Source of the DNA: a virus
Reading direction: 5' to 3' (one strand)
Virus record (IMG/VR): IMGVR_UViG_3300045988_105924
Location: 6,565 to 70,564 of that record
DNA length: 64,000 nt
In this document: piece after piece, positions 9,113 through 64,000 of the stretch
How the letters are laid out: each line of letters opens with the position of its first letter
Numbering within the stretch: the first letter of the stretch is position 1
Program-made: the position numbers and the translations under genes
Notes under the pieces: model-generated
Seen by the model: the letters and a program-made list of their open reading frames with translations, nothing else
Databases searched by the model: none
Told to the model about the DNA's origin: nothing

Positions 9113-9364
9113 ATGAATGAAAAGAGATTTGAAATTGATACGCCTATTGGAAAACTGGTTGCTGAAGCTGATGGAGATTATAAAGATTATCCAGGAATTT
9201 ACATTTATCTTCAGAGAGAAGATGGCGTTCAAATTGATTTGTCTTGCACGGAAATTGATAAAGAAACTGGCGAAGGCAGAGTCTTTATCTGGGAAAATAC
9301 GTCTACAGATGAATGCACTAAGATGATGCGATGGACTAAAGAACAACTTATGATTAAAGAGTGA
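9113..9364 (+). CDS. hypothetical protein (83 aa)
   Basis: SD aaggagatggtaat then ATG. Confidence 0.55.
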   Translation: MNEKRFEIDTPIGKLVAEADGDYKDYPGIYIYLQREDGVQIDLSCTEIDKETGEGRVFIWENTSTDECTKMMRWTKEQLMIKE

Positions 9365-9383
9365 GTGTAGGGAGTAAACAAAA

Positions 9384-11584: not shown

Positions 11585-11809
11585 ATGATGGTATATGGAA
11601 ACATAACGTGTAATCGCTGTGGCATTACATGGTATGGTCCTAAATGTGGAAAGCTCTATTGTGATGAATGTCGTAAGATAATAAGAAATGAGGCATCCAT
11701 TCGATGCAAGAATAAAAAGAAACATAAACCAACATTTGTTGAGATTGTAAGAATGGCAGATGCTGAAGGATTATCTTACGGTAAGTATTGTTTGAAGTAT
11801 GGAGTTTGA
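11585..11809 (+). CDS. zinc-ribbon protein (CNRC...CDEC)
   Basis: SD gaggtgtaaatt then ATG; two CxxC pairs. Confidence 0.55.
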   Translation: MMVYGNITCNRCGITWYGPKCGKLYCDECRKIIRNEASIRCKNKKKHKPTFVEIVRMADAEGLSYGKYCLKYGV

Positions 11810-12638
11810 GGTGAATATAATAAGCGCAGTTGTTGAAAGAAAAGAAGAACAGATACCTAAATTGATTTATTTTAATCCGAAACCTTCTGTTCCGGCTAAA
11901 AAACGTGGTGTTACAAAAAGTAAGCAGAAGCGTAAGCGTAATATTTCTCCAATTAGAAGCTTGGATGATGTTCAAATGATTTCGGAATATTTTTGGGACA
12001 AGAAGCAGTATCGTAACTGGTGCTTATTTAATGTAGGTATTGCAACTGGTTTACGTGCTAGCGATTTGCTCAAGTTGAAGGTTTCCGATATGTCTTATTG
12101 CCTTTACAATGGAAAGATTGAAGTGGTTGAAGACGCGGGAGTTTGCATTATTGAAGAAAAAACATCTAAATATCGTGAAATTATTCTTACTCCAGAAGCG
12201 AGGGATATTGTTGAAACATACATCAAGATTGCGAAACTTGGATATGATGATTGGATGTTTCCATCTCGACAGGGGAGCTGGAAAAAGTCTTTGAGAACAA
12301 ATGGTGGACATGGGAAAACCGGTATTCTTCATATCGCAGAACCCAAAAAGGCCGGTGATCCTATTGATGTTGATCATTTTGCTCGTATTCTTCGTAACGT
12401 TGGTAAAGATTTAGGTCTTAATTATAAAATTGCATCTCATTCTTGCCGCAAAACGTTTGGTTATCGTGAAATGTGTCTTAATAAGGATGATAATCAGGCA
12501 TTGTCTTGGATTCAGGGTCAGTTGAATCATAGTAGTCAGGACATTACATTACGGTACGTTGGTTTTGATGAGGATAAGGCAAAAGAATATTATAAGAAGA
12601 CTTTTTATGGTGTGAATACACACAGCTTGGAAGACTGA
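11799..12638 (+). CDS. tyrosine site-specific recombinase (XerC/integrase family), internal copy
   Basis: GLRASDLLKL, HSCRKTFG and LRYVG motifs consistent with the R..H..R..Y catalytic core. Confidence 0.7.
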   Translation: MEFEVNIISAVVERKEEQIPKLIYFNPKPSVPAKKRGVTKSKQKRKRNISPIRSLDDVQMISEYFWDKKQYRNWCLFNVGIATGLRASDLLKLKVSDMSYCLYNGKIEVVEDAGVCIIEEKTSKYREIILTPEARDIVETYIKIAKLGYDDWMFPSRQGSWKKSLRTNGGHGKTGILHIAEPKKAGDPIDVDHFARILRNVGKDLGLNYKIASHSCRKTFGYREMCLNKDDNQALSWIQGQLNHSSQDITLRYVGFDEDKAKEYYKKTFYGVNTHSLED

Positions 12639-18637: not shown

Positions 18638-19564
18638 ATGCTTACTGAAGAGAAAATCAACGCTTTTGCCGAAAAGTATTCTGATAGAAGCGGTGAGTTT
18701 GTTATATCGACACTTAACCATGTTATGGATTACGAGGCCGAGCGTGGGTATGAGTTGTTTGACTTCACAAAAGATGATTTTGTAAAGATGTTTGCCAAAT
18801 ACAATTGGGTGAATTCAAGTCGGTCGTTCAGAAATGTAAAGTCAATAATTACAGGTTACATCAAAAGTGAGTATCGAGCGAGCATGTATGACTTAGCTGA
18901 ATTCTCGGAGAGCGACGTGAGTTCAGACAATATGTACGAGGACAAGTATTTTGCGTCAGCTGATGAGTTTGTTGATTTCTTGGACAAGTATGAAGAACCA
19001 TATCAGATTCGTATGAACGTGATTGCCGTGCTGTACTGGATTGGTCTTACTTCCGAAGAGGTTTCTAATCTGACAATTAACGATGTTGATTTTGAATCAT
19101 GTACTGTTCTGAATAAGACCGGTGTTGACGCGAGATTGATGAATATCATTAAGCAGTGTTATGAAATGAAACAATACGATGCTCCAAATATGGGAGGATA
19201 CAGAACGTTTTATGTCATAAATGGTGATTACATTCTTCGCAAAACAGAGGATAGAACTGGTGCAGACAGTGATTCAAGAATGTCTACAAATACGATTCAT
19301 AGTTATTTCACGCGCTTGAATGATATTCTCGAAAGAAGATATCATTCAAAGGCTTTAGACCGAAGACATCTGACCAGAAACGGCGAGTATGTCAAGGTTT
19401 ATAACTACTGTAAAACTCATCCAGAATTTAATCTTGCAGAACTTAGTTTCGGAAATGGTAAAGATCCTCTTGCGGACATTATCGGAAGAAAGTGCAGCAA
19501 GGTTGCCTACATTAGTTTCCGGCAAGGATACAAGGGCTGGATCGAATACTTCCACAAAAATTAA
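18638..19564 (+). CDS. hypothetical protein (308 aa)
   Basis: SD aagaaggagtgtgccact then ATG. Confidence 0.55.
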   Translation: MLTEEKINAFAEKYSDRSGEFVISTLNHVMDYEAERGYELFDFTKDDFVKMFAKYNWVNSSRSFRNVKSIITGYIKSEYRASMYDLAEFSESDVSSDNMYEDKYFASADEFVDFLDKYEEPYQIRMNVIAVLYWIGLTSEEVSNLTINDVDFESCTVLNKTGVDARLMNIIKQCYEMKQYDAPNMGGYRTFYVINGDYILRKTEDRTGADSDSRMSTNTIHSYFTRLNDILERRYHSKALDRRHLTRNGEYVKVYNYCKTHPEFNLAELSFGNGKDPLADIIGRKCSKVAYISFRQGYKGWIEYFHKN

Positions 19565-19569
19565 AAACA

Positions 19570-19596
19570 GGGGGCTTCAGCCCCTTGATTTTAACA
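19570..19596 (+). terminator. rho-independent terminator (GGGGC-TTCA-GCCCC then T-tract)
   Basis: GC hairpin followed by ttgattttaa. Confidence 0.65.
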
Positions 19597-19602
19597 TTGT
19601 AA

Positions 19603-19620
19603 CTATATAACACAGGATAC
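19603..19620 (+). promoter_or_regulatory. conserved motif CTATATAACACAGGATAC (copy 1)
   Basis: one of five direct copies, always 13-25 nt upstream of an SD. Confidence 0.6.
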
Positions 19621-19652
19621 AGAAAATAGTATTTGAATGGAGAATGATAACA

Positions 19653-21719
19653 ATGTCTGATTTCAAGAAATTTCGTGCACTGCTGCAGGACCACTTCAAT
19701 GAGATGGTGAAGGGCGAAAGCCCTCTGTTTATCACCGATGCAGACGAGGATGAACTGTATAATCTGTATCTCGACAGCTTCCCAGCTGGCACGAATGAGT
19801 TGTTCCGTAAGCGGCGCGAGTATGACTGTTCCTGCTGCCGCCGTTTCGTAAAGAACATCGGTAAGCTGGTTTCCTTTATGGATGGTCAGATGGTTACCGT
19901 CTGGGATTTCGATACCAAGTCCGATGTTTATCAGCCGGTTGTGGATGCGCTGGCTGCCTATGTGAAAACCTGCGCTGTTGTGAACCCGTATTACGTCAGC
20001 CGCAATATGATCTCTGATAGCAAGTTTGGCACTGAGATGAACTATGAGTATGACGCTGATCATAAGGCGGTTCATACCTGGGATCATTTCGTTGTCGAGA
20101 TTCCTCAGCGGTTCATTGTGCGTCCCGATGACGTACCTACCAAGATGGCTCAGTGGCGTGATTCCGCCAATGTGTTCAAGCGCTCTCTGGAGGAGCTAAC
20201 CATGGATGCCGTGGACACCGTGCTTGAGCTGATTGCGCAGAACAGCCTGTATCGCGGTAAGGAGTTTGAATCTCTGGTTCGTGGCTTCAAAATCGATAAG
20301 CAAGTGTATGATCGTCTGCCTGATGAAAAGAAGTCCGCTTATGTTTGGATGGCTCCCGGCGGAGCTTCGATGAACCGGCTTCGCATCCGCAATACGGCAA
20401 TCGGTACTCTGCTGGTGAACCTGAGCGAGGGCATGGACGTGGATGCTGCTGTGTCTGCGTTTGAGGCCATTGTTGCTCCCGCCAACTATAAGCGTCCTAA
20501 GGCGATTTTTACCAAGAAGATGCTGGAAGACGCACAGAAAACCGTCACTGAGTTGGGCTATATGAACAGTCTGGGTCGCCGGTTTGCTACTCTGGACGAC
20601 ATCACCGTAAATAACGTTTTATTCTGTAACCGAGACGCAGCCCCTCGTATTACTGGCGCTGTGAATCCGTTTGAAGCAATGGCGAAGACTGTCGCAATCG
20701 ATCCTAAGAAGTTCGGCCGCGCAGAGGAAATCGGTATTGATAAGTTTATCAAGGACGTGCTGCCCACCGCGACTGGTCTGGAACTGTTTATGGAGAATCG
20801 GTTTGAGAAGAATATGACGTCTCTGATTGCTCCGCAGGATAAGAACGCGCCGTCTATGTTCAAGTGGGCGAATGGTTTCAGTTGGGCGTATACGGGTAAC
20901 GTGGCTGACAGCCAGATCCGTGAGAACGTCAAGAATGCAGGCGGTAAGGTTGATGGCGTGTTGCGTTTCTCTATTCAGTGGAACGATAAGCAGTGCGAGT
21001 GGGATGGAAATGACCTTGATGCCCACTGTGTTGAACCGAACGACTTTGAGATCTATTTTGGCAACAAACGAGATTGGAGTACTGGTGGCAATCTGGATGT
21101 AGATATTATTCATCCTGATCGCGATGAGGCCGCTGTTGAGAATATTACATGGCCTGACATCAAAAAGATGAAGGATGGTAAATACGAGTTCTTTGTTCAT
21201 TGCTTCTCTAACCGTGGCGGCAAAACCGGCTTCCGCGCAGAGATTGAATTTGATGGTCAAATCTACTCCTTCAATTACAATATTCCGCTGCGTCAGACTC
21301 AGAATGTTTCTGTTGCTACTGTTGTGTTGAATGATGGGCAGTTTACTATTAAGGAACATCTCAATAGTTCTACTTCTTCCCGTGAAATCTGGGGTGTGAA
21401 TTCCAATCAGTTTGTACCGGTGTCCGTAGCAATGTATTCTCCGAACTACTGGGACGAGCAGAGTGGTAACGGTAATCGTCATTACTTCTTCATGCTCAAG
21501 GATTGTGTAAACCCTGAAAAGCCCAATGGATTCTACAATGAATTCCTGAAGGCGGAACTGCTACAGCATAAGCGAGTATTCGAGGCTCTTGGTTCTCAGA
21601 TGGCAGTTCAGTCGGTAGATGACCAGCTGTCCGGCGTTGGGTTCTCTGAGACGAAACATGATTCCTTTGTTGTCAAGGTTCAGGGCGCTACTGAGCGGGT
21701 TCTGAAAGTTGTTATTTAA
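19653..21719 (+). CDS. large protein of unknown function (688 aa), GC-enriched
   Basis: long ORF with a strong C-ending codon bias distinct from flanking AT-rich genes; CSCC cluster near the N-terminus; no P-loop or other recognisable catalytic motif. Confidence 0.65.
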   Translation: MSDFKKFRALLQDHFNEMVKGESPLFITDADEDELYNLYLDSFPAGTNELFRKRREYDCSCCRRFVKNIGKLVSFMDGQMVTVWDFDTKSDVYQPVVDALAAYVKTCAVVNPYYVSRNMISDSKFGTEMNYEYDADHKAVHTWDHFVVEIPQRFIVRPDDVPTKMAQWRDSANVFKRSLEELTMDAVDTVLELIAQNSLYRGKEFESLVRGFKIDKQVYDRLPDEKKSAYVWMAPGGASMNRLRIRNTAIGTLLVNLSEGMDVDAAVSAFEAIVAPANYKRPKAIFTKKMLEDAQKTVTELGYMNSLGRRFATLDDITVNNVLFCNRDAAPRITGAVNPFEAMAKTVAIDPKKFGRAEEIGIDKFIKDVLPTATGLELFMENRFEKNMTSLIAPQDKNAPSMFKWANGFSWAYTGNVADSQIRENVKNAGGKVDGVLRFSIQWNDKQCEWDGNDLDAHCVEPNDFEIYFGNKRDWSTGGNLDVDIIHPDRDEAAVENITWPDIKKMKDGKYEFFVHCFSNRGGKTGFRAEIEFDGQIYSFNYNIPLRQTQNVSVATVVLNDGQFTIKEHLNSSTSSREIWGVNSNQFVPVSVAMYSPNYWDEQSGNGNRHYFFMLKDCVNPEKPNGFYNEFLKAELLQHKRVFEALGSQMAVQSVDDQLSGVGFSETKHDSFVVKVQGATERVLKVVI

Positions 21720-22923: not shown

Positions 22924-23008
22924 GCCAAGGTGCTGCAAATGGGAGACAGGGCGAGCCCAAACCTCGCTGTGGAAACACATGCGGTTTCGAATACCGTCCT
23001 TGGCACCA
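22924..23008 (+). tRNA. tRNA-Leu (anticodon CAA), type II
   Basis: hand-folded cloverleaf: acceptor GCCAAGG/CCTTGGC, 3-bp D stem, anticodon arm GCGAG-CCCAAAC-CTCGC, variable arm TGTG-GAAA-CACA, T arm GCGGT-TTCGAAT-ACCGT, encoded CCA. Confidence 0.75.
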
Positions 23009-23048
23009 GAGCCCGAACGTCCACCTATTAGATATTGGAGGCAAATTC

Positions 23049-23930
23049 ATGAAAAGAATCGACAAATTTACAAAAAAAGAAATTGAGCAAGTTTTTAGAG
23101 AGAGTAAAAGCTTAGATGCTGTTGCAAGAAAACTTGGATATAAAGACAACAGCGGTGGAACTCACTCGGCTTTAAAGAAATATGTTGAAGAGAATAATAT
23201 AGACATATCCCATTTTACTGGGCAAGGCTAGAACAAAGGTAACTTTGATTTGTCAAAATTTACAAAGGGAGTATCTTTTAGCAGTCAGTTAAGGAAAGCC
23301 TTGCTTTACATAAGACCTCATAAATGTGAATGTTGTGGCAATACAGAATAGTTGGGACATGAAATTCCATTGGAGGTTCATCATGTAGATGGAGATAGGC
23401 TTAACAATGAGTTGAGCAACCTACAACTTTTATGTCCAAATTGTCATGCTCAAACAGATAATTACTGCGGAAAAAATATAAGATACAAAGAGGCCGTTCC
23501 AGAAGAAAAGTTGATAGAAGCACTTAAAATATCACCAAATATAAAACAAGCACTTTCTAAAATTGGTATAAATTATTCCGCGAAGAGTTGGTACGACAAA
23601 GCTAAAAGATTGATGGAAGAAAACAATATCGAATTTAGTAAAAAGGAAGTTTCAGTTCCTGTTAAGAAAAGAGAACATAGATGCAGACGATGCTCTGTGT
23701 GTGGCAAACCTTTACAATACAATACAAAAGGAACGTTGTGTAAAGAATGCTATAGGCATTCGCCAGATAGAAGGAATGTTGAATGGCCATCAAAAGAAAC
23801 TTTATTGAATGATATAACAACTATGTCTTTCTTAAAGGTTGGTGAAAAATATGGAGTGACTGATAATGCCGTTAGAAAATGGTGTAGATATTATGGCCTC
23901 CCGGCAACTAGGAAAGAATTAAGAAAATAA
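23049..23930 (+). CDS. HNH homing endonuclease, one 294-codon frame containing two in-frame TAG codons (23229-23231, 23349-23351)
   Basis: single frame 23049..23930; the HNH core PHKCECCGNTE-[TAG]-LGHEIPLEVHHVDGDRLNNELSNLQLLCPNCH is contiguous only if TAG is translated; no frameshift is needed; SD ttggaggcaaattc then ATG. Confidence 0.55.
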
Positions 23931-23936
23931 TACACG

Positions 23937-23962
23937 TGGCGAGATAACTCGCCACATTATAT
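23937..23962 (+). terminator. hairpin GTGGCGAG-ATAA-CTCGCCAC plus A/T tail
   Basis: perfect 8-bp stem downstream of the HNH gene. Confidence 0.55.
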
Positions 23963-24047
23963 GCTACCGTGGTGCAATTGGCGAGACACAGTTGCCTTAA
24001 AAGCAACCGTCCGAGAGGAATTGAGGGATCATACCCCTCCGGTAGCA
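23963..24047 (+). tRNA. tRNA-Leu (anticodon UAA), type II
   Basis: acceptor GCTACCG/CGGTAGC, 3-bp D stem, anticodon arm GTTGC-CTTAAAA-GCAAC, 15-nt variable arm, T arm GAGGG-ATCATAC-CCCTC (atypical T loop). Confidence 0.6.
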
Positions 24048-24053
24048 TCATAT

Positions 24054-24127
24054 CCAGAATGTAGTGTAATGGCAGCACGCTGCGTTTGGGACGCAGAAGA
24101 GCGATTCGAATTCGACATTTTGGACCA
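24054..24127 (+). tRNA. tRNA-Pro-like (anticodon UGG), non-canonical
   Basis: acceptor CCAGAAT/ATTTTGG, anticodon arm CTGCG-TTTGGGA-CGCAG, T loop TTCGAAT, but only 3 Watson-Crick pairs in the T stem and an irregular D arm; CCA encoded. Confidence 0.4.
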
Positions 24128-24150
24128 GTGGAGTATTCCACTTTCTTTTC
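24128..24150 (+). terminator. hairpin GTGGA-GTAT-TCCAC followed by TTTCTTTTC
   Basis: stem-loop plus T-run immediately after the tRNA 3' end. Confidence 0.5.
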
Positions 24151-24223
24151 ATGAATACCTTCCTATTATTCTTGGCTCTCCAAAAAAACGGAGCAGTAGG
24201 ACGCAGCAAGCCAAGTTACATAA

Positions 24224-24313
24224 TGAGGGTTCGCCAAGTGGTAAATGGCATCTGGCTTTGACCCAGACAGCGTGCTTTATAGCCGATCGTCGGTTCGATC
24301 CCGACACCCTCAA
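24224..24313 (+). tRNA. tRNA-Gln-like (anticodon UUG) with an atypical 21-nt extra region
   Basis: acceptor TGAGGGT/ACCCTCA, D arm GCCA..TGGC, anticodon arm TCTGG-CTTTGAC-CCAGA, canonical T arm GTCGG-TTCGATC-CCGAC; a 21-nt variable-position insert is unusual for Gln. Confidence 0.45.
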
Positions 24314-24318
24314 TTTAT

Positions 24319-24407
24319 GGACACGTGATGGAATCGCAGACATGAAAGATTTAGACTCTTTTGCCGTTGATAGCGGTGTGCCCGTTCAAATCGGGTCGTG
24401 TCCACCA
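24319..24407 (+). tRNA. tRNA-Leu (anticodon UAG), type II
   Basis: acceptor GGACACG/CGTGTCC, 3-bp D stem ATG/CAT with long D loop, anticodon arm AAAGA-TTTAGAC-TCTTT, 18-nt variable arm, T arm GCCCG-TTCAAAT-CGGGT, CCA encoded. Confidence 0.6.
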
Positions 24408-24513
24408 TTATCAACTTATGGTTGCGTACCGTTTGTTGATATCCTTTGATTGCCACTATTATTCCCGGCTCGCCAGTGATGGTGCAGTAGTGCTTTGTAA
24501 GCTGGGTTTTCAT

Positions 24514-24588
24514 GCAGCGGTCGTACAACGGCTAGTACATCAGCCTTCCAAGCTGAGGATGAGGTTTCGACTACCTTTCGCTGCTCCA
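24514..24588 (+). tRNA. tRNA-Gly (anticodon UCC)
   Basis: acceptor GCAGCGG/TCGCTGC, D arm GTAC..GTAC, anticodon arm TCAGC-CTTCCAA-GCTGA, T arm GAGGT-TTCGACT-ACCTT, CCA encoded. Confidence 0.75.
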
Positions 24589-24777
24589 ATCTCGTATGGG
24601 TAGGATCTTTGGCGGTCAGATCCGGCCGCGCCTGTGCGAGATACCACCCCGAAAGGGGCGAGATATAGGAAATGTGCATCGCTGTTATTCCTTCCTCGTC
24701 TATATGATATAGATGCAATAGTGTTTTATAAGGAAGGTGCCCAGTTGAATAGTTGCAGCTATTTAACTGGTTTTTAT

Positions 24778-24858
24778 GGGACATTATCTCAATTGGTTAG
24801 AGAACTCAGCTCATAACTGAGCATATGTATCACGGTTCAAGTCCGACATGTCCCACCA
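24778..24858 (+). tRNA. tRNA-Met/fMet-like (anticodon CAU)
   Basis: acceptor GGGACAT/ATGTCCC, D arm TCTC..GAGA, anticodon arm CTCAG-CTCATAA-CTGAG, T loop GGTTCAAGTCC but a weak 3-bp T stem; CCA encoded. Confidence 0.5.
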
Positions 24859-46923: not shown

Positions 46924-47715
46924 ATGGAAGTTAAACTGATTACACATACTCCTGATCCTGAAAAGGTGGTAGCCGCAGCCGCAAAACTGTGTTACTCCAA
47001 TTCGAGTATTCAGGATTTGATGGATGGATTGACCGATGAGAAGGTTGATGAGTTTCTAAATCGACTTTCTAGCCTTGGTCACGCTAGTCCTACGGAGCAT
47101 GTGACTTTTACTTTTGGAATCGAAGGTGTGAGCCGGTCTTTACTTGCCCAGATTACCCGGCATCGCATTGCATCATTCAGTGTACAGAGTCAGCGCTATG
47201 TGCGAATGAATAATGCGGAAATCATCATTCCTGATGTTATTGACGATGATAGCGAAGCAAGAGAGGCATTTAAACAGGCAATTCAGACCGCTGAATATTC
47301 TTATAAGCACCTGTGTCAGATTCTTGAGGACAAAATTACTGAAGAACTGATGGTTGCTGATTCTCGTTTGACTGAGAAAAAGGCACGCGTAAAAGCATCC
47401 AAGATTGCAAATGAGAACGCACGTTCTGTTCTGCCAAATGCTTGTTCCACGAAGATGATTGTTACAATGAACGCTCGTTCGTTGAACAATTTCTTTAATC
47501 TGCGTTGCTGTGAACGTGCGCAACCTGAAATAAAGGAGCTTGCAACCGAGATGCTAAAGCTGGTTTATCCGATTGCTCCTCATCTGTTCAAGTGTGCTGG
47601 TCCCAACTGCTGTGGCAATGGTTGTACCGAAGGAATGATGTCTTGTGGTAAGTTCCACGAGATTCGTGATAAATACGACAAACTGAAACAGGAGGCATTA
47701 AATGGAAACACTTGA
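46924..47715 (+). CDS. thyX: flavin-dependent thymidylate synthase ThyX
   Basis: ThyX signature RHRIASFSVQSQRY; SD aaggaggattaa then ATG. Confidence 0.8.
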   Translation: MEVKLITHTPDPEKVVAAAAKLCYSNSSIQDLMDGLTDEKVDEFLNRLSSLGHASPTEHVTFTFGIEGVSRSLLAQITRHRIASFSVQSQRYVRMNNAEIIIPDVIDDDSEAREAFKQAIQTAEYSYKHLCQILEDKITEELMVADSRLTEKKARVKASKIANENARSVLPNACSTKMIVTMNARSLNNFFNLRCCERAQPEIKELATEMLKLVYPIAPHLFKCAGPNCCGNGCTEGMMSCGKFHEIRDKYDKLKQEALNGNT

Positions 47716-48267: not shown

Positions 48268-49791
48268 ATGAATATGATGTTTATTGCAATTCCTGTCGTT
48301 GTTGTCTTTCTGATCGCCTTTGCATTTACTTGCTATAAGAAGGCTCCTCCTACTCAGGCAATCGTCGTAACAGGTTTTGGACTGTCTAAGCCGAAAGTTA
48401 TCTGTGGTCGTGGCGTGTTCGTCCTTCCGGTTATTCAGCGAGCTGACCGTCTGAATATGCGATTGCTCAAGATTGATGTCAAGACTCCTGAAACCGGTGT
48501 AAAGACTAAAGAGGGTGTTTCTCTGTGGCTGGACTCTGTTGTTACTGTTCAGGTTTACTCTGAGAACTCTACTGTAACTGATGATGAGATTAAGAGTGCC
48601 GGTTGTGAGGATGCAAAGACTTATATTAGTGCTCGTCAGCAGGCTGCTATTTCCAACTTCCTTGGCATGAGTGAAGATGGCATTAACGAAAAGATCAACG
48701 ATGTCCTTCAGGGCAATCTGCGAGAGATTGTTTCTGAGATGACTGTCAATGATATCCTGACCAATCGTAAACAGATGGCAATTTCCGTTGTTGAGAATGC
48801 TCGTCCTGATTTAGCAAAGATGGGTCTGGAAGTTGTTACTTTCAATGTTCAGGATATTAAGGATGCTATTGATGCTCAGGGTCATAATCATGGTGTCATT
48901 GAGGCAATTGGTGTTCAGCAGGAAGAGCTGGTGAAGAAACAGGCAGAGATTGCTAAGGCCGAAGCCGCTCGTGATATTGCTCGTGCTAAGGCGGATACTG
49001 CTCGTGAATCAAATGAAAAGGAAATTGAATCCAAGACCGCTATTGCACAGCGCAACAATGAGTATCTTCTGACTCAGGCCGCTCTGAAGGCGGAGGCTGA
49101 TAAGGCAAATGCTGATGCAGAAGCTGCTGGTGAGATTCAAATGAATCTGCGTGATAAGGAAATTAAGGAAGCTGAAGCTGACGCAGCTATTGCAAAGCAG
49201 AAGAAGATGGTTGAGTTGGCCGCTCAGGAAGCAGAAGTTCGTCAGCAAAAGCTGGATGCGGAGATTCGCAAGCAGGCAGACGCCGACCTGTATAAGCGTC
49301 AGAAGGAAGCTGAAGCAAAGAAGTACGAAGCAGAGCGTTCTGCAGAATCCGCAAAGTTCGCTAAGGAACAGGAGGCAGAAGGCATCCGTATGGTTGGCAT
49401 GGCGGAAGCTGAGGCCATCAGGCAGAAGGGTCTTGCTGAAGCAGAAGCTATGCTGAAGAAGGCCGAAGCTTACAAGCAGTACAATGGTGCGGCTATGGGT
49501 GAAATGATCATTAAGATTCTTCCTAGCATTGCAGCTGAGGTTGCAAAGCCGCTGGCGTCCATTGACAAGGTTTCCATCATTGGCAGTAACGCAAATGGTG
49601 TTTCTGAGATTTCCGGCAATGTCCCAGCAGTCATGGCTCAGACTTTTGAGGCCGTTCGTGAAGCAACTGGCATTGATATGAAGGAAATTGTCCGTGCCAA
49701 CAGTTACGATGCAAAGGTCACTAAGAATGTGAACCTTGTAAGCGATTCGACGATTGTTTCTGAAAAGAACGATGCGCAGGATGCTGAGTAA
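48268..49791 (+). CDS. flotillin-like SPFH/band-7 protein with EA-repeat coiled-coil
   Basis: N-terminal TM, SPFH core (AIVVTGFG...PETGVKTKEGV...VTFNVQDI), C-terminal AEAEA/EAEAK-rich repeats. Confidence 0.65.
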   Translation: MNMMFIAIPVVVVFLIAFAFTCYKKAPPTQAIVVTGFGLSKPKVICGRGVFVLPVIQRADRLNMRLLKIDVKTPETGVKTKEGVSLWLDSVVTVQVYSENSTVTDDEIKSAGCEDAKTYISARQQAAISNFLGMSEDGINEKINDVLQGNLREIVSEMTVNDILTNRKQMAISVVENARPDLAKMGLEVVTFNVQDIKDAIDAQGHNHGVIEAIGVQQEELVKKQAEIAKAEAARDIARAKADTARESNEKEIESKTAIAQRNNEYLLTQAALKAEADKANADAEAAGEIQMNLRDKEIKEAEADAAIAKQKKMVELAAQEAEVRQQKLDAEIRKQADADLYKRQKEAEAKKYEAERSAESAKFAKEQEAEGIRMVGMAEAEAIRQKGLAEAEAMLKKAEAYKQYNGAAMGEMIIKILPSIAAEVAKPLASIDKVSIIGSNANGVSEISGNVPAVMAQTFEAVREATGIDMKEIVRANSYDAKVTKNVNLVSDSTIVSEKNDAQDAE

Positions 49792-55343: not shown

Positions 55344-55652
55344 ATGTTTAAAATTTTTAAAAATACTGCCGTATGCATACTTCTAGCAACGATTATACTG
55401 ACTGGATGTAGTACAAGGGTGAAAGACTCAGTAGGAAATGTAACTGTAGCGAATGGCTGGTTCTATCGTATCGGTGACACTCCTATGGTGTACGACAAGG
55501 ATACACACATCATGTATTATTTGTTCGGAAAAGGTGCAGGCTACACAGGCTACGGCTATATGTCTCCTTATTATAATGAGCACGGTCAGATGTGCCACTA
55601 CGTTGATGGTCAGATTATTCCTATCGAGGAGGTGCTAATCGATGTAGATTGA
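55344..55652 (+). CDS. lipoprotein (lipobox LTGC)
   Basis: MFKIFKNTAVCILLATIILTGCST signal peptide with lipobox; SD gaaaggaagggt then ATG. Confidence 0.6.
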   Translation: MFKIFKNTAVCILLATIILTGCSTRVKDSVGNVTVANGWFYRIGDTPMVYDKDTHIMYYLFGKGAGYTGYGYMSPYYNEHGQMCHYVDGQIIPIEEVLIDVD

Positions 55653-55830
55653 TTTTACGATTGCTGTCTTAGCAACTCTAATTATGATGGGCTGTTGCAT
55701 CCGATGTGAGCAGCTTATCGTTGAAGTGTCCAAGGCAAGTTTTGATGACGAAAGCACACAGAAGTTCTTTTGTGGAGTTGTGAATGTTGCTATTGTCGTG
55801 TTTGCAGCATTACAGACGTTTAAGCATTGA
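55642..55830 (+). CDS. small membrane protein whose second codon is TAG (ATG-TAG-61 sense codons)
   Basis: SD GAGGAGGTG 7 nt upstream of ATG 55642; codon 2 is TAG; the frame continues IDFTIAVLATLIMMGCC... to TGA 55828; in the standard code the only alternative is an SD-less internal ATG that truncates the TM helix. Confidence 0.45.
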
Positions 55831-55841
55831 GGTGGTTTAAG

Positions 55842-56210
55842 ATGGCGAAATACATTCCTGAAAATGCTCGATGGGCGGATATCACTCCTTTGCTAGATGA
55901 GATTGACAGTGGCTTAAAACATATGCGCTTTTATGACGAACAAGATGACTATTCTGATTTTCTAGCAGAAGAACGCGAAGATCTACTGAGGCTTCCGAAA
56001 GCAGAATCTAATACGGTTCGCGCTATCGCACACTGGGATCACTGGTCATGCGATGACGAAGAAGACTTTGTATATCATTGCTCTAACTGTAGTGAACAGT
56101 TTTACGAAGATTTCTTTTATCCTCGTGAGAATCCTTGTGTTGGTTCTGAAAAGTATAAACCTTTTAAGTATTGCCCTTATTGCGGGGCGAAAATGGAGGG
56201 CGTTAAATGA
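55842..56210 (+). CDS. hypothetical protein with C-terminal zinc ribbon
   Basis: SD gaggtggtttaag then ATG; CSNCS...CPYCG. Confidence 0.5.
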   Translation: MAKYIPENARWADITPLLDEIDSGLKHMRFYDEQDDYSDFLAEEREDLLRLPKAESNTVRAIAHWDHWSCDDEEDFVYHCSNCSEQFYEDFFYPRENPCVGSEKYKPFKYCPYCGAKMEGVK

Positions 56211-56752
56211 ACTACGCTAAAATTGTTCCATGTGATATTGCGAATGGGCCAGGCGTAAGAGTCACGTTGTTCTGCGCGGGATGTAACCATCATTGCCCCG
56301 GCTGTCAGAATCCTACCACATGGGACCCGAATGGTGGTCAGCCATTCACAGATGAAATGCTTGATAAAATTGTAGATTTACTTCGACCTGATTACATTCA
56401 GGGACTGACTCTCACTGGTGGAGATCCACTCTTGCCGGAGAATAGAACTACAATCTTTCGTATCTGCAAATGTGTTTACAAAGAGTTTGGGCGAAAAAAA
56501 GATATCTGGTTATGGACGGGGTACACATATGAAGAACTGCGACAAGAATGGATGGAATCATGGGATAGCGTCATTCTTGTCAACATTTTTTCATACACAA
56601 CAGTTCTTGTTGATGGTCCTTTTATTGAGGCGAAAAAAGATATTTCTCTTCCATATATGGGAAGCTCAAATCAGAGGGTGATTGATATTTGGAGGAGCGC
56701 AGGAAAAGATAATCCAGTCCTTTGGTGGACTCCAGAAGAGAAAGGAAAATAA
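56207..56752 (+). CDS. nrdG: anaerobic ribonucleotide reductase activating protein NrdG (radical SAM)
   Basis: CAGCNHHCPGCQN radical-SAM cluster motif typical of NrdG; adjacent to nrdD. Confidence 0.8.
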   Translation: MNYAKIVPCDIANGPGVRVTLFCAGCNHHCPGCQNPTTWDPNGGQPFTDEMLDKIVDLLRPDYIQGLTLTGGDPLLPENRTTIFRICKCVYKEFGRKKDIWLWTGYTYEELRQEWMESWDSVILVNIFSYTTVLVDGPFIEAKKDISLPYMGSSNQRVIDIWRSAGKDNPVLWWTPEEKGK

Positions 56753-61742: not shown

Positions 61743-62561
61743 ATGATTATTGACTGCAAATCTATCGCACAGGATATCAAAAATAAAATCAAGAATGTCA
61801 TCGCAGAAGATGACTATGCTCCTATTTTACATATTTATCAAGTAGGGGACAACCCTGCATCCAATGCTTATATTCGCGGCAAGCTGCGTGACTGTGAAGA
61901 GGTTGGAATCGGAGTGGAGCTTGTCAAACTGCCAGAAAATATTACCGAAGATGAATTGAACAACAAGATCTTAGAAGATTATAATTGGGAATATGTGGAC
62001 GGTATCATTGTTCAGCTTCCGTTGCCAAAACATATCGACCCTAAAAATATTTGTATTCCAGATGAACTTGACGTTGATGGCTTTAATTCTACATCTAAAT
62101 TTCAGCCCTGCACTCCGCTGGGCGTTATGAAGATTTTTGACTCCATCGGTTACGATCTGGATGGCAAGAATGTACTCGTATGCGGTCAATCTGATATTGT
62201 TGGTCGTCCGCTGGTTGATATGCTGATTAAACGGCACTGTAATGTGATCTCTGTGAATAGCACGGGTTCCCGCATGAAGGCCACTACTCTTGGATTTGAA
62301 ATGGTCGATGTGGTCATCTCTGCTGTGGGCAAGCGCAACTTTATCACACCGTTTGGTCTTGATCGGGTTGAAGTCTGCATCGATGTTGGCATCAACTATG
62401 ACGAGAACGGAAAGCAACACGGCGACTGTGCCGATGATATTTATGAGATGGAAGATATCAAAGTAACCCCTCGTATCGGCGGAGTTGGCCTTATGACACG
62501 TGCTATGCTACTTTACAATGTATGTGTGGCAAGGTATGGAGAAGAGAAGATGGAGAGGTGA
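61743..62561 (+). CDS. folD: bifunctional methylenetetrahydrofolate dehydrogenase/cyclohydrolase FolD
   Basis: whole-length FolD pattern (YIRGKLRDCEEVGI, DGIIVQLPLP, VLVCGQSDIVGRPLVDML, Rossmann GxSxxxG); SD aaaggagactcaca then ATG. Confidence 0.75.
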   Translation: MIIDCKSIAQDIKNKIKNVIAEDDYAPILHIYQVGDNPASNAYIRGKLRDCEEVGIGVELVKLPENITEDELNNKILEDYNWEYVDGIIVQLPLPKHIDPKNICIPDELDVDGFNSTSKFQPCTPLGVMKIFDSIGYDLDGKNVLVCGQSDIVGRPLVDMLIKRHCNVISVNSTGSRMKATTLGFEMVDVVISAVGKRNFITPFGLDRVEVCIDVGINYDENGKQHGDCADDIYEMEDIKVTPRIGGVGLMTRAMLLYNVCVARYGEEKMER

Positions 62562-62833: not shown

Positions 62834-64000
62834 ATGATAAGACGTAAAGATAATAATGGCAAAGTTTTAAAAGACGGCGAGAGCCAGAGAAAGGATGGGA
62901 GATACCAATATAGATGGACAAACAAACTTGGAAAACGCTCAATAATATACGCCACTTCACTTAAAGAATTGAGAGAAAAAGAAGCTGAAATCCAAGAAAA
63001 ACTTAATTTGGGTATAACGTCTACTTCAAAAATCACAGTGTACCAATTAGCAAAAAGACATCTCGAAGAAACAAAACTTACTATTAGGCCAAGCAGCTAT
63101 AAAACAAAATCGCAGAATTTGAAAATCTTTCAGAATCACCTAATTGGGGAAATGAATGCAACTGATATTTTAGTGCGCGATGTAAAACAATTTGCACGAG
63201 AATTGGATAACGAAGGATATTGTTATACAACAATCAGAGATGTCATGTCTTTAGCTAGACCGGCATTTCAAGAAATGTTTGATGAGAATATAATTCCTAG
63301 AAATCCATTCGTTTTTAAATTAAATACAGTTGTCAAATGTGACTCAAAAGAAAAAGAAATATTAACAGAAGAGCAGTATCAAAATCTGATCAAGTTCATG
63401 AAATCTAGTCGAGTATATAAAAGGCATGTTGGCATGGTGATGCTTTTGCACGAGACCGGACTTCGAGCAGGAGAATTATGCGGGCTAACAAAAAAGTCAT
63501 TTGATTTTGATAACAACACTGTTACTATATCTCATCAGATGGTGTACGATGGAAAGAGCGGCGGGCTGTATTTAGCACCTACAAAAACAGAAAGTGGGAT
63601 AAGGACTATCCCATTATCTAAAGACGCCATCATTGCTTTTGAAGAAGCGATAAAACAACGTCCGATTGTAAAAGCAGAGAGAATAATAGATGGGCAAGCC
63701 GACTTCTTGTTCATAGCAAAAACTGGAAGGCCCTATACGAATAAAAACCTTGTTAGAATTTTTGAAGGACTAATCAAAGCCTATAATAGTTGCCATGATG
63801 AACCATTGCCTGAAGTCACTGCCCATAGTATGCGCCACGAATATTGTACACGGCTTGTCAAAGCCAAGATGGATGTTAAATCGGTTCAATACCTCATGGG
63901 ACATTCGTCGCCCGATATAACCTTGAAAGTGTATACTCATATCTTAAAAGAAGAGACCGAAGCAGAGGCAATCAAACAGTTTAATAGGATTGTTTCCTAA
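62834..64000 (+). CDS. int: tyrosine integrase (phage integrase family)
   Basis: N-terminal SAM-like/core-binding region; catalytic box LRAGEL, HSMRHEYCTRL and LMGHSSPDITLKVYTH (R-H-R-Y pattern); stop at 63998-64000. Confidence 0.8.
   Translation: MIRRKDNNGKVLKDGESQRKDGRYQYRWTNKLGKRSIIYATSLKELREKEAEIQEKLNLGITSTSKITVYQLAKRHLEETKLTIRPSSYKTKSQNLKIFQNHLIGEMNATDILVRDVKQFARELDNEGYCYTTIRDVMSLARPAFQEMFDENIIPRNPFVFKLNTVVKCDSKEKEILTEEQYQNLIKFMKSSRVYKRHVGMVMLLHETGLRAGELCGLTKKSFDFDNNTVTISHQMVYDGKSGGLYLAPTKTESGIRTIPLSKDAIIAFEEAIKQRPIVKAERIIDGQADFLFIAKTGRPYTNKNLVRIFEGLIKAYNSCHDEPLPEVTAHSMRHEYCTRLVKAKMDVKSVQYLMGHSSPDITLKVYTHILKEETEAEAIKQFNRIVS

Follow-up and report, generated by a model that had tools for sequence, protein, structure and literature searches.

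An amber codon behind the start of a small membrane-protein gene and candidate decoding of UAG as tryptophan in a family of gut prophages

A 64,000-nucleotide stretch of viral DNA (IMG/VR record IMGVR_UViG_3300045988_105924, positions 6,565 to 70,564; hereafter the window, with position 1 at its first letter) contains a strong Shine-Dalgarno (SD) sequence, an ATG and, as the very next codon, a TAG. Under the standard code the open reading frame (ORF) would end after one residue, yet the frame remains open for another 60 codons. Does this locus mark the start of a real gene and, if so, how would the amber codon be passed? The answer that we favor, with a probability of roughly two in three, is that a Trp codon of a real membrane-peptide gene has changed to amber in the window genome and is decoded by a phage tRNA(CUA) common in the lineage.

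A conserved small-protein gene with an amber second codon

Direct reading bore out the layout given in a preliminary description of the locus, which had been made from the DNA letters alone: the SD GAGGAGGTG, the ATG at 55642, the TAG behind it and a TGA at 55828–55830 that closes the frame (Table 1). The translation (M*IDFTIAVLATLIMMGCCIRCEQ...QTFKH*) has two hydrophobic segments by hydropathy, at residues ~2–20 and ~42–59, with a charged loop between them. A protein search returned 21 homologous database proteins (E 1e-18 to 6e-31), mostly 62 amino acids (aa) long and called as ordinary genes. Their N-termini read MW in most cases, otherwise ML or MR, and continue with IDFTIAVLATLIMM. Reading codon 2 as sense therefore gives the family's normal 62-aa protein with both hydrophobic segments, much as the preliminary description had proposed.

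The position of the start is equally well conserved. In 20 related contigs the homolog begins at this ATG behind the corresponding SD, which is identical or near-identical in every relative carrying the gene (contig comparison). The sole canonical start past the TAG, ATG 55684, has no purine-rich SD ahead of it (upstream sequence GCAACTCTAATT), would yield a product of 48 aa and would cut the first hydrophobic segment, as had been noted for the predicted transmembrane helix. No homolog starting at this downstream ATG was found among the related contigs, and the 48-aa remnant ORF was not on record in a public-sequence look-up. The comparison shows 55642–55830 to be a genuine 62-codon gene for a two-segment membrane protein.

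The configuration is also exceptional within the window. The + strand contains 13 ATGTAG hexamers, two of which have GGAGG upstream, and only at 55642 does an SD-ATGTAG precede an ORF of 40 aa or more. The other hexamer with GGAGG (23383–23388) precedes no ORF of that length; it lies out of frame inside the ORF 23352..23930 and is probably there by chance. A strong SD, an AUG and an immediate stop make up the architecture of start-stop sites described in bacteria, and the locus matches it. It could accordingly be read as a deliberate start-stop element, a minimal non-coding ORF that tunes the translation of a neighbor or holds ribosomes. We find this reading scarcely credible, since in all relatives a conserved 62-codon gene begins at this SD-AUG, the 60 codons after the TAG are intact and 97% identical in protein to those of the relatives, and the configuration is unique to the window genome.

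The ATG and TAG are located inside the final four codons of an upstream gene for a lipoprotein-like protein. The TGA of this gene (55650–55652), in another frame, overlaps codons 3 and 4 of the peptide gene, a layout characteristic of translationally coupled genes. The lipoprotein-like gene had no family match in our searches. The peptide matched no Pfam, PHROG or PADLOC entry, and its neighbors likewise received no function from these searches; around it lie the lipoprotein-like gene, small uncharacterized proteins, NrdD/NrdG and dUTPase. A role as a holin or lysis membrane protein was considered and rejected: the two hydrophobic segments fit, but no lysin is nearby and no PHROG or Pfam match was obtained.

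Comparison of residue 2 among the homologs shows how the amber codon arose. In the related contigs codon 2 is TGG (18/20) or TTG (2/20), and TAG occurs in the window alone. Three IMG/VR relatives (L002, L003 and L010; numbers preceded by L denote related contigs or loci) are identical to the window over the SD, the spacer and the start except for TGG in place of TAG. Ten further contigs from ENA and Logan (L409–L418) have the same SD-ATG with TGG at codon 2. The window thus differs from its relatives by one G-to-A transition, at 55646, which is silent in the upstream gene that overlaps it (GTG to GTA, Val to Val).

A single-base difference from otherwise identical relatives is also what a sequencing or assembly error, or a minority variant within the sample, would produce; the true base would then be G and the allele an ordinary MW... 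one. Position 55646 lies outside the overlap with an identical ENA scaffold (L288) and is hence covered by one assembly only. Consensus errors are rare, however, at a single non-homopolymer base, the window is 100% identical to this independent scaffold over 10.5 kb elsewhere, and G to A at a Trp codon is a change repeatedly fixed in other parts of the family. We regard an error as very improbable.

Amber codons at tryptophan positions and suppressor tRNAs in the family

The wider family contains in-frame amber codons in genes that are hard to dismiss as dispensable. In the 10-kb block beside the suppressor tRNA genes described below, 248,076 aligned residues include six in-frame TAG sites, one TAA site and no TGA site. 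Codon tallies (Table 1) were taken over all loci, and the census of in-frame stops was restricted to true gene frames; many ORFs in the set upstream of the window are not real frames, and antisense Leu codons (CTG/CTA) mimic an exchange between Gln and TAG. One of the affected genes codes for the terminase large subunit, TerL (616 codons; Pfam Terminase_6N and TerL_ATPase; phrog_2). At this locus (L210:11143–12993 and orthologs in L208–L393), 45 of 146 genomes have TAG at Trp56 or Trp63. A TerL truncated ahead of its ATPase domain could not work. Furthermore, three relatives (L009, L010 and L021) have TAG for Trp174 in NrdG, in orthologs of the window gene at 56207–56752; this TAG stands eight codons before the normal stop, and the frame is conserved after it. 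All in-frame TAGs of the relatives in the block corresponding to 45.8–64 kb fall within the last ~12 codons of genes. An initial reading of TAG as a plain stop, with the TAG at codon 2 as a nonsense mutation, was abandoned on the late-gene data.

The window itself holds a second amber codon of this type, in the gene for a 164-aa protein (p164). Codon 106, which is TAG (7029–7031) in the window, is TGG in 25 relatives, TAT or TAC in 27 and TAG in one (L056). Relatives conserve the 58 codons that follow, and the product expected from the TAG allele under standard-code truncation is listed in 380 blocks of a public collection. The post-TAG frame is intact in all of the 10–12 independent contigs inspected, and a test for decay over its 58 codons is powerless given that all carriers are identical there. 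A systematic screen of the window found exactly two gene-frame TAGs that relatives align across with Trp, those at 55645 and 7029. The widespread p164 amber with an intact frame places the window genome in the TAG-bearing part of the family and suggests a TAG-tolerant background.

A candidate agent for decoding was found in a second tRNA cluster, which we reached by a leftward walk through IMG/VR relatives. In these relatives the cluster lies on the late-gene strand, ~1.7 kb ahead of the terminase gene; measured from the first letter of the window, it is ~18 kb upstream. ARAGORN called a tRNA with a CTA anticodon in 36 of 80 loci that had been picked regardless of tRNA content, and pattern scans found CTA tRNAs in at least 115 IMG/VR contigs. 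They comprise at least four sequence types (A–D) that score 45–56 bits against the Rfam tRNA model (threshold 29); types B and D give a cloverleaf fold whose anticodon loop is CU-CUA-AA. When compared with ~20 phage tRNA species, each type is closest to the phage tRNA-Trp(CCA), with identities of 78% (B), 74% (D), 66% (A) and 65% (C) over a background of ~60%. The CTA tRNAs and the phage tRNA-Trp also have their acceptor ends and G73 in common. The two tRNAs never occur together; 13 of the 80 loci have tRNA-Trp(CCA) alone, and 31 have neither. By sequence and position, the CTA suppressors appear to take the place of tRNA-Trp(CCA) in its slot. The ~100 kb that we examined showed no phage tryptophanyl-tRNA synthetase (TrpRS) and no release factor.

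ARAGORN also called a TTA-anticodon tRNA in five loci (L274–L278, ~9296–9370). This candidate ochre suppressor was rejected as a copy of tRNA-Lys(TTT) that has lost 2 nt from its anticodon loop. The copy still scores 43.8 bits in Rfam and is probably a decaying gene.

The suppressor and the amber codons tend to occur in the same genomes. Among the 80 loci, 26 have both a CTA tRNA and at least one in-frame TAG, 10 only the suppressor, two only TAG and 42 neither (Fisher p=8e-11, uncorrected for phylogeny). Stated differently, 26 of the 28 genomes with an in-frame TAG carry the suppressor. For TerL, TAG is present in 16 of 36 genomes with the suppressor and in none of the 44 without it (p=3e-7, likewise uncorrected). 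Such a distribution is consistent with decoding of amber by the phage tRNA.

Which residue would be inserted? An E. coli tRNA-Trp given a CUA anticodon is charged with Gln by glutaminyl-tRNA synthetase (GlnRS) (PMC2965240), and all phage amber recodings described before are TAG to Gln (Borges et al. preprint; phAss-1). Trp charging is less expected because CUA changes position 35, a major identity element of E. coli TrpRS. The codon could therefore be read as Gln (code 15) by a CUA tRNA charged by GlnRS, giving a product that begins MQIDF.... The comparative data argue against this. Wherever TAG is shared by several genomes, the other genomes have Trp or Trp/Phe/Tyr at the site and CAG or CAA in none; the 146 genomes compared at TerL codon 63 are an example. 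TAGs in place of Gln codons were each confined to a single genome, and the suppressors have the acceptor ends and G73 of the phage tRNA-Trp and occupy its slot. These comparative data point most probably to Trp as the residue inserted at UAG, and decoding as Gln seems quite unlikely.

Patterns of TAG usage complement this picture. Only two of the 123 + strand ORF stops in the window are TAG (TGA, 61; TAA, 60); they comprise the in-frame TAG at 7029 and a second that probably does not belong to a gene. Among orthologous stops family-wide, 6 of 1273 are TAG (L208–L287). We considered TAG-terminator avoidance as a marker of suppressor status and rejected it, as avoidance is equally extreme with and without the suppressor (3/598 and 3/675 in the two groups by tRNA status). 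TAG occurs on the coding strand of the window at half of its Markov expectation, its reverse complement CTA is not depleted, and off-frame TAG is mildly depleted (0.76–0.81).

As a sense codon TAG is sparse. There are two in-frame TAGs in ~125 window genes, with 322 TGG against two TAG in 64 kb, and late 10-kb blocks hold zero to three TAGs each. Treating TAG as sense throughout the window brings little ORF gain on the coding strand. The many interrupted genes and low standard-code density expected under code 15 were not found in the window, and at no shared TAG site does TAG align to Gln. Because usage is so sparse, methods based on coding density would miss recoding of this kind.

Weighing amber decoding at codon 2

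The tRNAs and the shared TAG sites strongly support amber decoding in the phage lineage, and this part of the preliminary description gains from the comparison. It had presented the codon-2 TAG as independent support for decoding; by itself, however, that codon is weak evidence because the allele is a singleton, the gene is accessory and the change is silent in the overlapping gene. In the mechanism that we propose, codon 2 would have changed from TGG to TAG by one G-to-A transition in the window genome. The change would be tolerated by the lineage because many of its members encode an amber suppressor, with a CUA anticodon and resemblance to tRNA-Trp(CCA), from a gene just upstream of the terminase operon. 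With the suppressor, UAG would most probably be read as Trp, giving the usual MW... protein. If the host translated the gene unaided, release factor 1 (RF1) would release formylmethionine and there would be no product. We infer that the window genome would carry a CTA tRNA, that suppression at codon 2 would be efficient enough to matter and that the TAG may have a role in gating expression.

Several observations weigh against this reading. The codon-2 TAG is absent from all other contigs inspected. The window has no CTA-anticodon tRNA in its 64 kb, the suppressor slot lying ~18 kb outside it, and the scaffold L288, the only contig found to be identical to it (over 10.5 kb), begins 6.6 kb upstream of it, short of this slot. 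The family is mosaic, and inferring the suppressor of the window genome from its nearest neighbors is therefore unsafe. About 55% of the family (44/80) has no detectable suppressor, the resemblance of types A and C to tRNA-Trp barely exceeds background, the association tests make no correction for phylogeny, and the E. coli precedent for charging tRNA-Trp(CUA) is Gln. Two genomes (L268 and L269) have an in-frame TAG (p341 codon 89) and no detectable CTA tRNA in the cluster; it is possible that the tRNA was lost, that it lies elsewhere in the genome or that the gene is truly broken. Finally, sporadic TAA, TGA and TAG nonsense changes occur in single genomes in small accessory genes.

The gene itself may be expendable. 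In roughly half of the relatives its slot is filled by another small hydrophobic gene (MLIEIAWLMTKAYIILL...), which makes the peptide gene accessory; in such a slot a null allele would be tolerated. The slot at 55642–55830 appears to be a cassette site at which small membrane-protein genes are exchanged. The alternative gene, unrelated to the peptide gene, is found at ~9780–9990 of L004–L008, L011, L012, L016, L019 and L020, in some relatives behind the same upstream gene end and SD.

These points bring forward an explanation in which codon 2 is a nonsense mutation in a dispensable gene, in a genome with no suppressor or with negligible suppression at this codon. At most, reinitiation at AUG 55684 would then yield a trace of the 48-aa product. 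Such a null allele would fit a singleton among ~20 contigs with the peptide gene, in a slot that half of the relatives fill with another small gene, and in a lineage where 44 of 80 members lack the suppressor. Being silent in the overlapping gene, the change would meet no other selection against it, and it would have counterparts in the single-genome stops of other small genes and the singleton TAGs at Gln codons. It accounts poorly, however, for the second TAG (7029) at a Trp/Tyr position of the same genome, widespread and with an intact frame, and for the presence of the suppressor in 26 of the 28 genomes with an in-frame TAG. Furthermore, the change affects a Trp codon, the site class of the family's shared TAGs. 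A pseudogene test found the stop at a conserved Trp codon and the 60 downstream codons intact; the intactness of the rest of the ORF speaks against a null allele, but it is uninformative on decay because a singleton allele has had no time for decay. Overall, we judge a null allele, the main rival, to be unlikely and continue to prefer a decoded amber in a functional gene.

For the family as a whole we lean, by a small measure, toward a natural UAG-to-Trp variant. It would rely on suppressors derived from tRNA-Trp, be polymorphic (~45% of genomes) and affect a few percent of Trp codons, including some in the terminase gene. Such a system would represent a recoding intermediate, and it may gate the terminase, the peptide and other genes at the switch from lysogeny to lytic growth.

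The prophage, its significance and known recoding systems

The window covers modules of small early genes, a tRNA cluster, a replication module and nucleotide genes, and ends on the right with the integrase (Table 1). The replication module encodes DnaB, RecJ, a PolIII-alpha-type polymerase, a helicase/exonuclease and a ligase; NrdD/NrdG, dUTPase and a methyltransferase lie beyond it. A Xis gene adjoins the tyrosine integrase at the right end. In relatives, host genes follow past the integrase, either groEL (L184 1–11000, L011) or a carboxyltransferase/biotin-carrier operon (L409–L418, ~19000–20369, in contigs of up to 489 kb). The succession of integrase and host genes identifies the element as an integrated temperate prophage of ~130–150 kb, and the different flanks suggest more than one integration site or host for the family. 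The host is a gut member of the Bacillota, probably of the Clostridia. No close GenBank relative was found by DNA or polymerase searches. The terminase has ~28% identity to terminases of SPbeta-like Bacillus phages, and in a terminase search the sole relative among GTDB species representatives was an Anaerovorax prophage, 65% identical and without a suppressor.

Table 1. Coordinates of features in the window and codon tallies at amber sites across the family
Feature	Position	Strand	Details
Shine-Dalgarno GAGGAGGTG	55626..55634	+	direct reading; 7 nt spacer to ATG 55642–55644
62-codon small membrane-protein gene (predicted)	55642..55830	+	M-[TAG]-IDFTIAVLATLIMMGCCIRCEQ...QTFKH; translation, homologs, hydropathy
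In-frame amber, codon 2	55645..55647	+	single G to A at 55646 relative to TGG of relatives
Upstream lipoprotein-like gene	55344..55652	+	ORF 55299/55344..55652; signal peptide and LTGC lipobox read from sequence
p164 gene with in-frame TAG	6714..7208	+	164 aa; TAG 7029–7031, codon 106
tRNA cluster 1	22924..24858	+	Leu-CAA, Leu-TAA, Pro, Gln-TTG, Leu-TAG, Gly, Met; no suppressor
Tn916-type tyrosine integrase	62834..64000	+	Pfam Phage_integrase, Integrase_DNA; right prophage end
TerL codon 63			TGG 105; TAG 41
TerL codon 56			TGG 142; TAG 4
p341 codon 69			TGG 51; TAG 11
p341 codon 89			TGG 47; TAG 17
p159 codon 85			TGG 44; TAG 1
NrdG codon 174			TGG 20; TAG 3
p381 codon 54			TGG 54, TTT/TTC 74, TAT 19; TAG 15

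Some further genes were recorded along the way. In the tRNA cluster of the window, tRNA-Gln(TTG) (24224–24313) is called at 90 nt, compared with 71–74 nt in relatives, and alignment places ~19 extra bases after the anticodon arm; they could be an insertion, an intron-like element or a boundary artefact. The prophage encodes a flotillin/SPFH (Band_7) protein at 48268–49791. Position matches to gene calls in relatives place ThyX apparently at 46924–47715, a FolD-like methylenetetrahydrofolate dehydrogenase at 61743–62561, next to Xis, and a second, shorter Phage_integrase-family gene at 11799–12638 in the early region. A ToxN-family toxin gene (PF13958; abortive-infection type III toxin-antitoxin) lies on the opposite strand in L422–L428 (~70–830), ~3 kb upstream of window position 1 and just ahead of the early-gene block; some of these contigs also have a Lar restriction-alleviation gene further along.

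If the family does read UAG as Trp, TAG to Trp would be a third stop reassignment in phages, beside TAG to Gln and TGA to Trp, the only two observed in an earlier survey (Borges et al. preprint). Our literature searches found no natural phage case of TAG to Trp. Known recoding has been detected through genomes whose genes break under the standard code, and a sparse form would escape such screens. Standard annotation, meanwhile, truncates or misses genes in these prophages, such as the terminase N-terminus, p164 and the peptide gene; p164, for example, is cut to 105 aa, leaving a false 'intergenic gap' of 181 nt. With a suppressor in some close relatives and TAG stops purged family-wide, the prophages would offer a natural series for the study of stop-codon capture. 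Three stages appear to coexist: depletion of TAG as a stop, gain of a suppressor by an anticodon change in a duplicated or replaced tRNA, and drift from TGG to TAG. The family also raises the biochemical question of how the host charges a CUA-anticodon tRNA with Trp, and natural Trp-accepting amber suppressors would be of interest for genetic-code expansion.

The closest parallel is with the code-15 gut phages (crAss-like, Lak, Garnet prophages and phAss-1). Amber-recoded phages and prophages are well known to carry CTA suppressors, to terminate genes seldom with TAG and to contain TAG within late genes; recoding has been suggested to gate lysis and lysogeny in them (Borges et al. preprint; Peters et al.; Cook et al.; phAss-1). 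Among recoded prophages, some have integrases free of TAG (Borges et al. preprint; phAss-1). The present family resembles the code-15 phages in its standard-code host, phage-borne CTA tRNA, in-frame TAG in essential late genes such as terminase, TAG-depleted stops and a suppressor beside the late genes. In contrast to them, TAG here aligns to Trp or aromatic residues, the tRNA resembles tRNA-Trp, and the family is polymorphic, with the suppressor in ~45% of genomes. In phAss-1, which showed no similarity to the window phage in searches, 28% of ORFs are affected, whereas TAG is sparse in the present family and coding density looks normal under code 11. By its sequence features, the family would thus count as amber recoding in general, while it fails the tests for code 15 in the placement of TAG at Trp and in its sparseness.

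The code-4 opal phages (Jade, Agate and some crAss-like phages; TGA to Trp) are similar in that a stop one transition from TGG is read as Trp via a suppressor, in hosts that keep the standard code. They differ in the codon and its release factor, UGA being released by RF2 and UAG, as here, by RF1. In genome organization the element is like the SPbeta-like Bacillus phages, which are temperate, ~130 kb in size and have a PolIII-alpha-type polymerase and many small early genes in a large block. The two are only remotely related, and the present element has a Tn916-type tyrosine integrase and a gut origin, whereas SPbeta integrates with a serine recombinase. To our knowledge, SPbeta is not known for suppressor tRNAs or in-frame ambers.

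The nearest likeness to the tRNA itself is su+7, the E. coli tRNA-Trp in which a change of the anticodon from CCA to CUA allows reading of UAG. That tRNA is a laboratory mutant charged mainly with Gln (PMC2965240), whereas the tRNAs of the present family are natural, phage-borne and of at least four types, and the comparative evidence here points to Trp.

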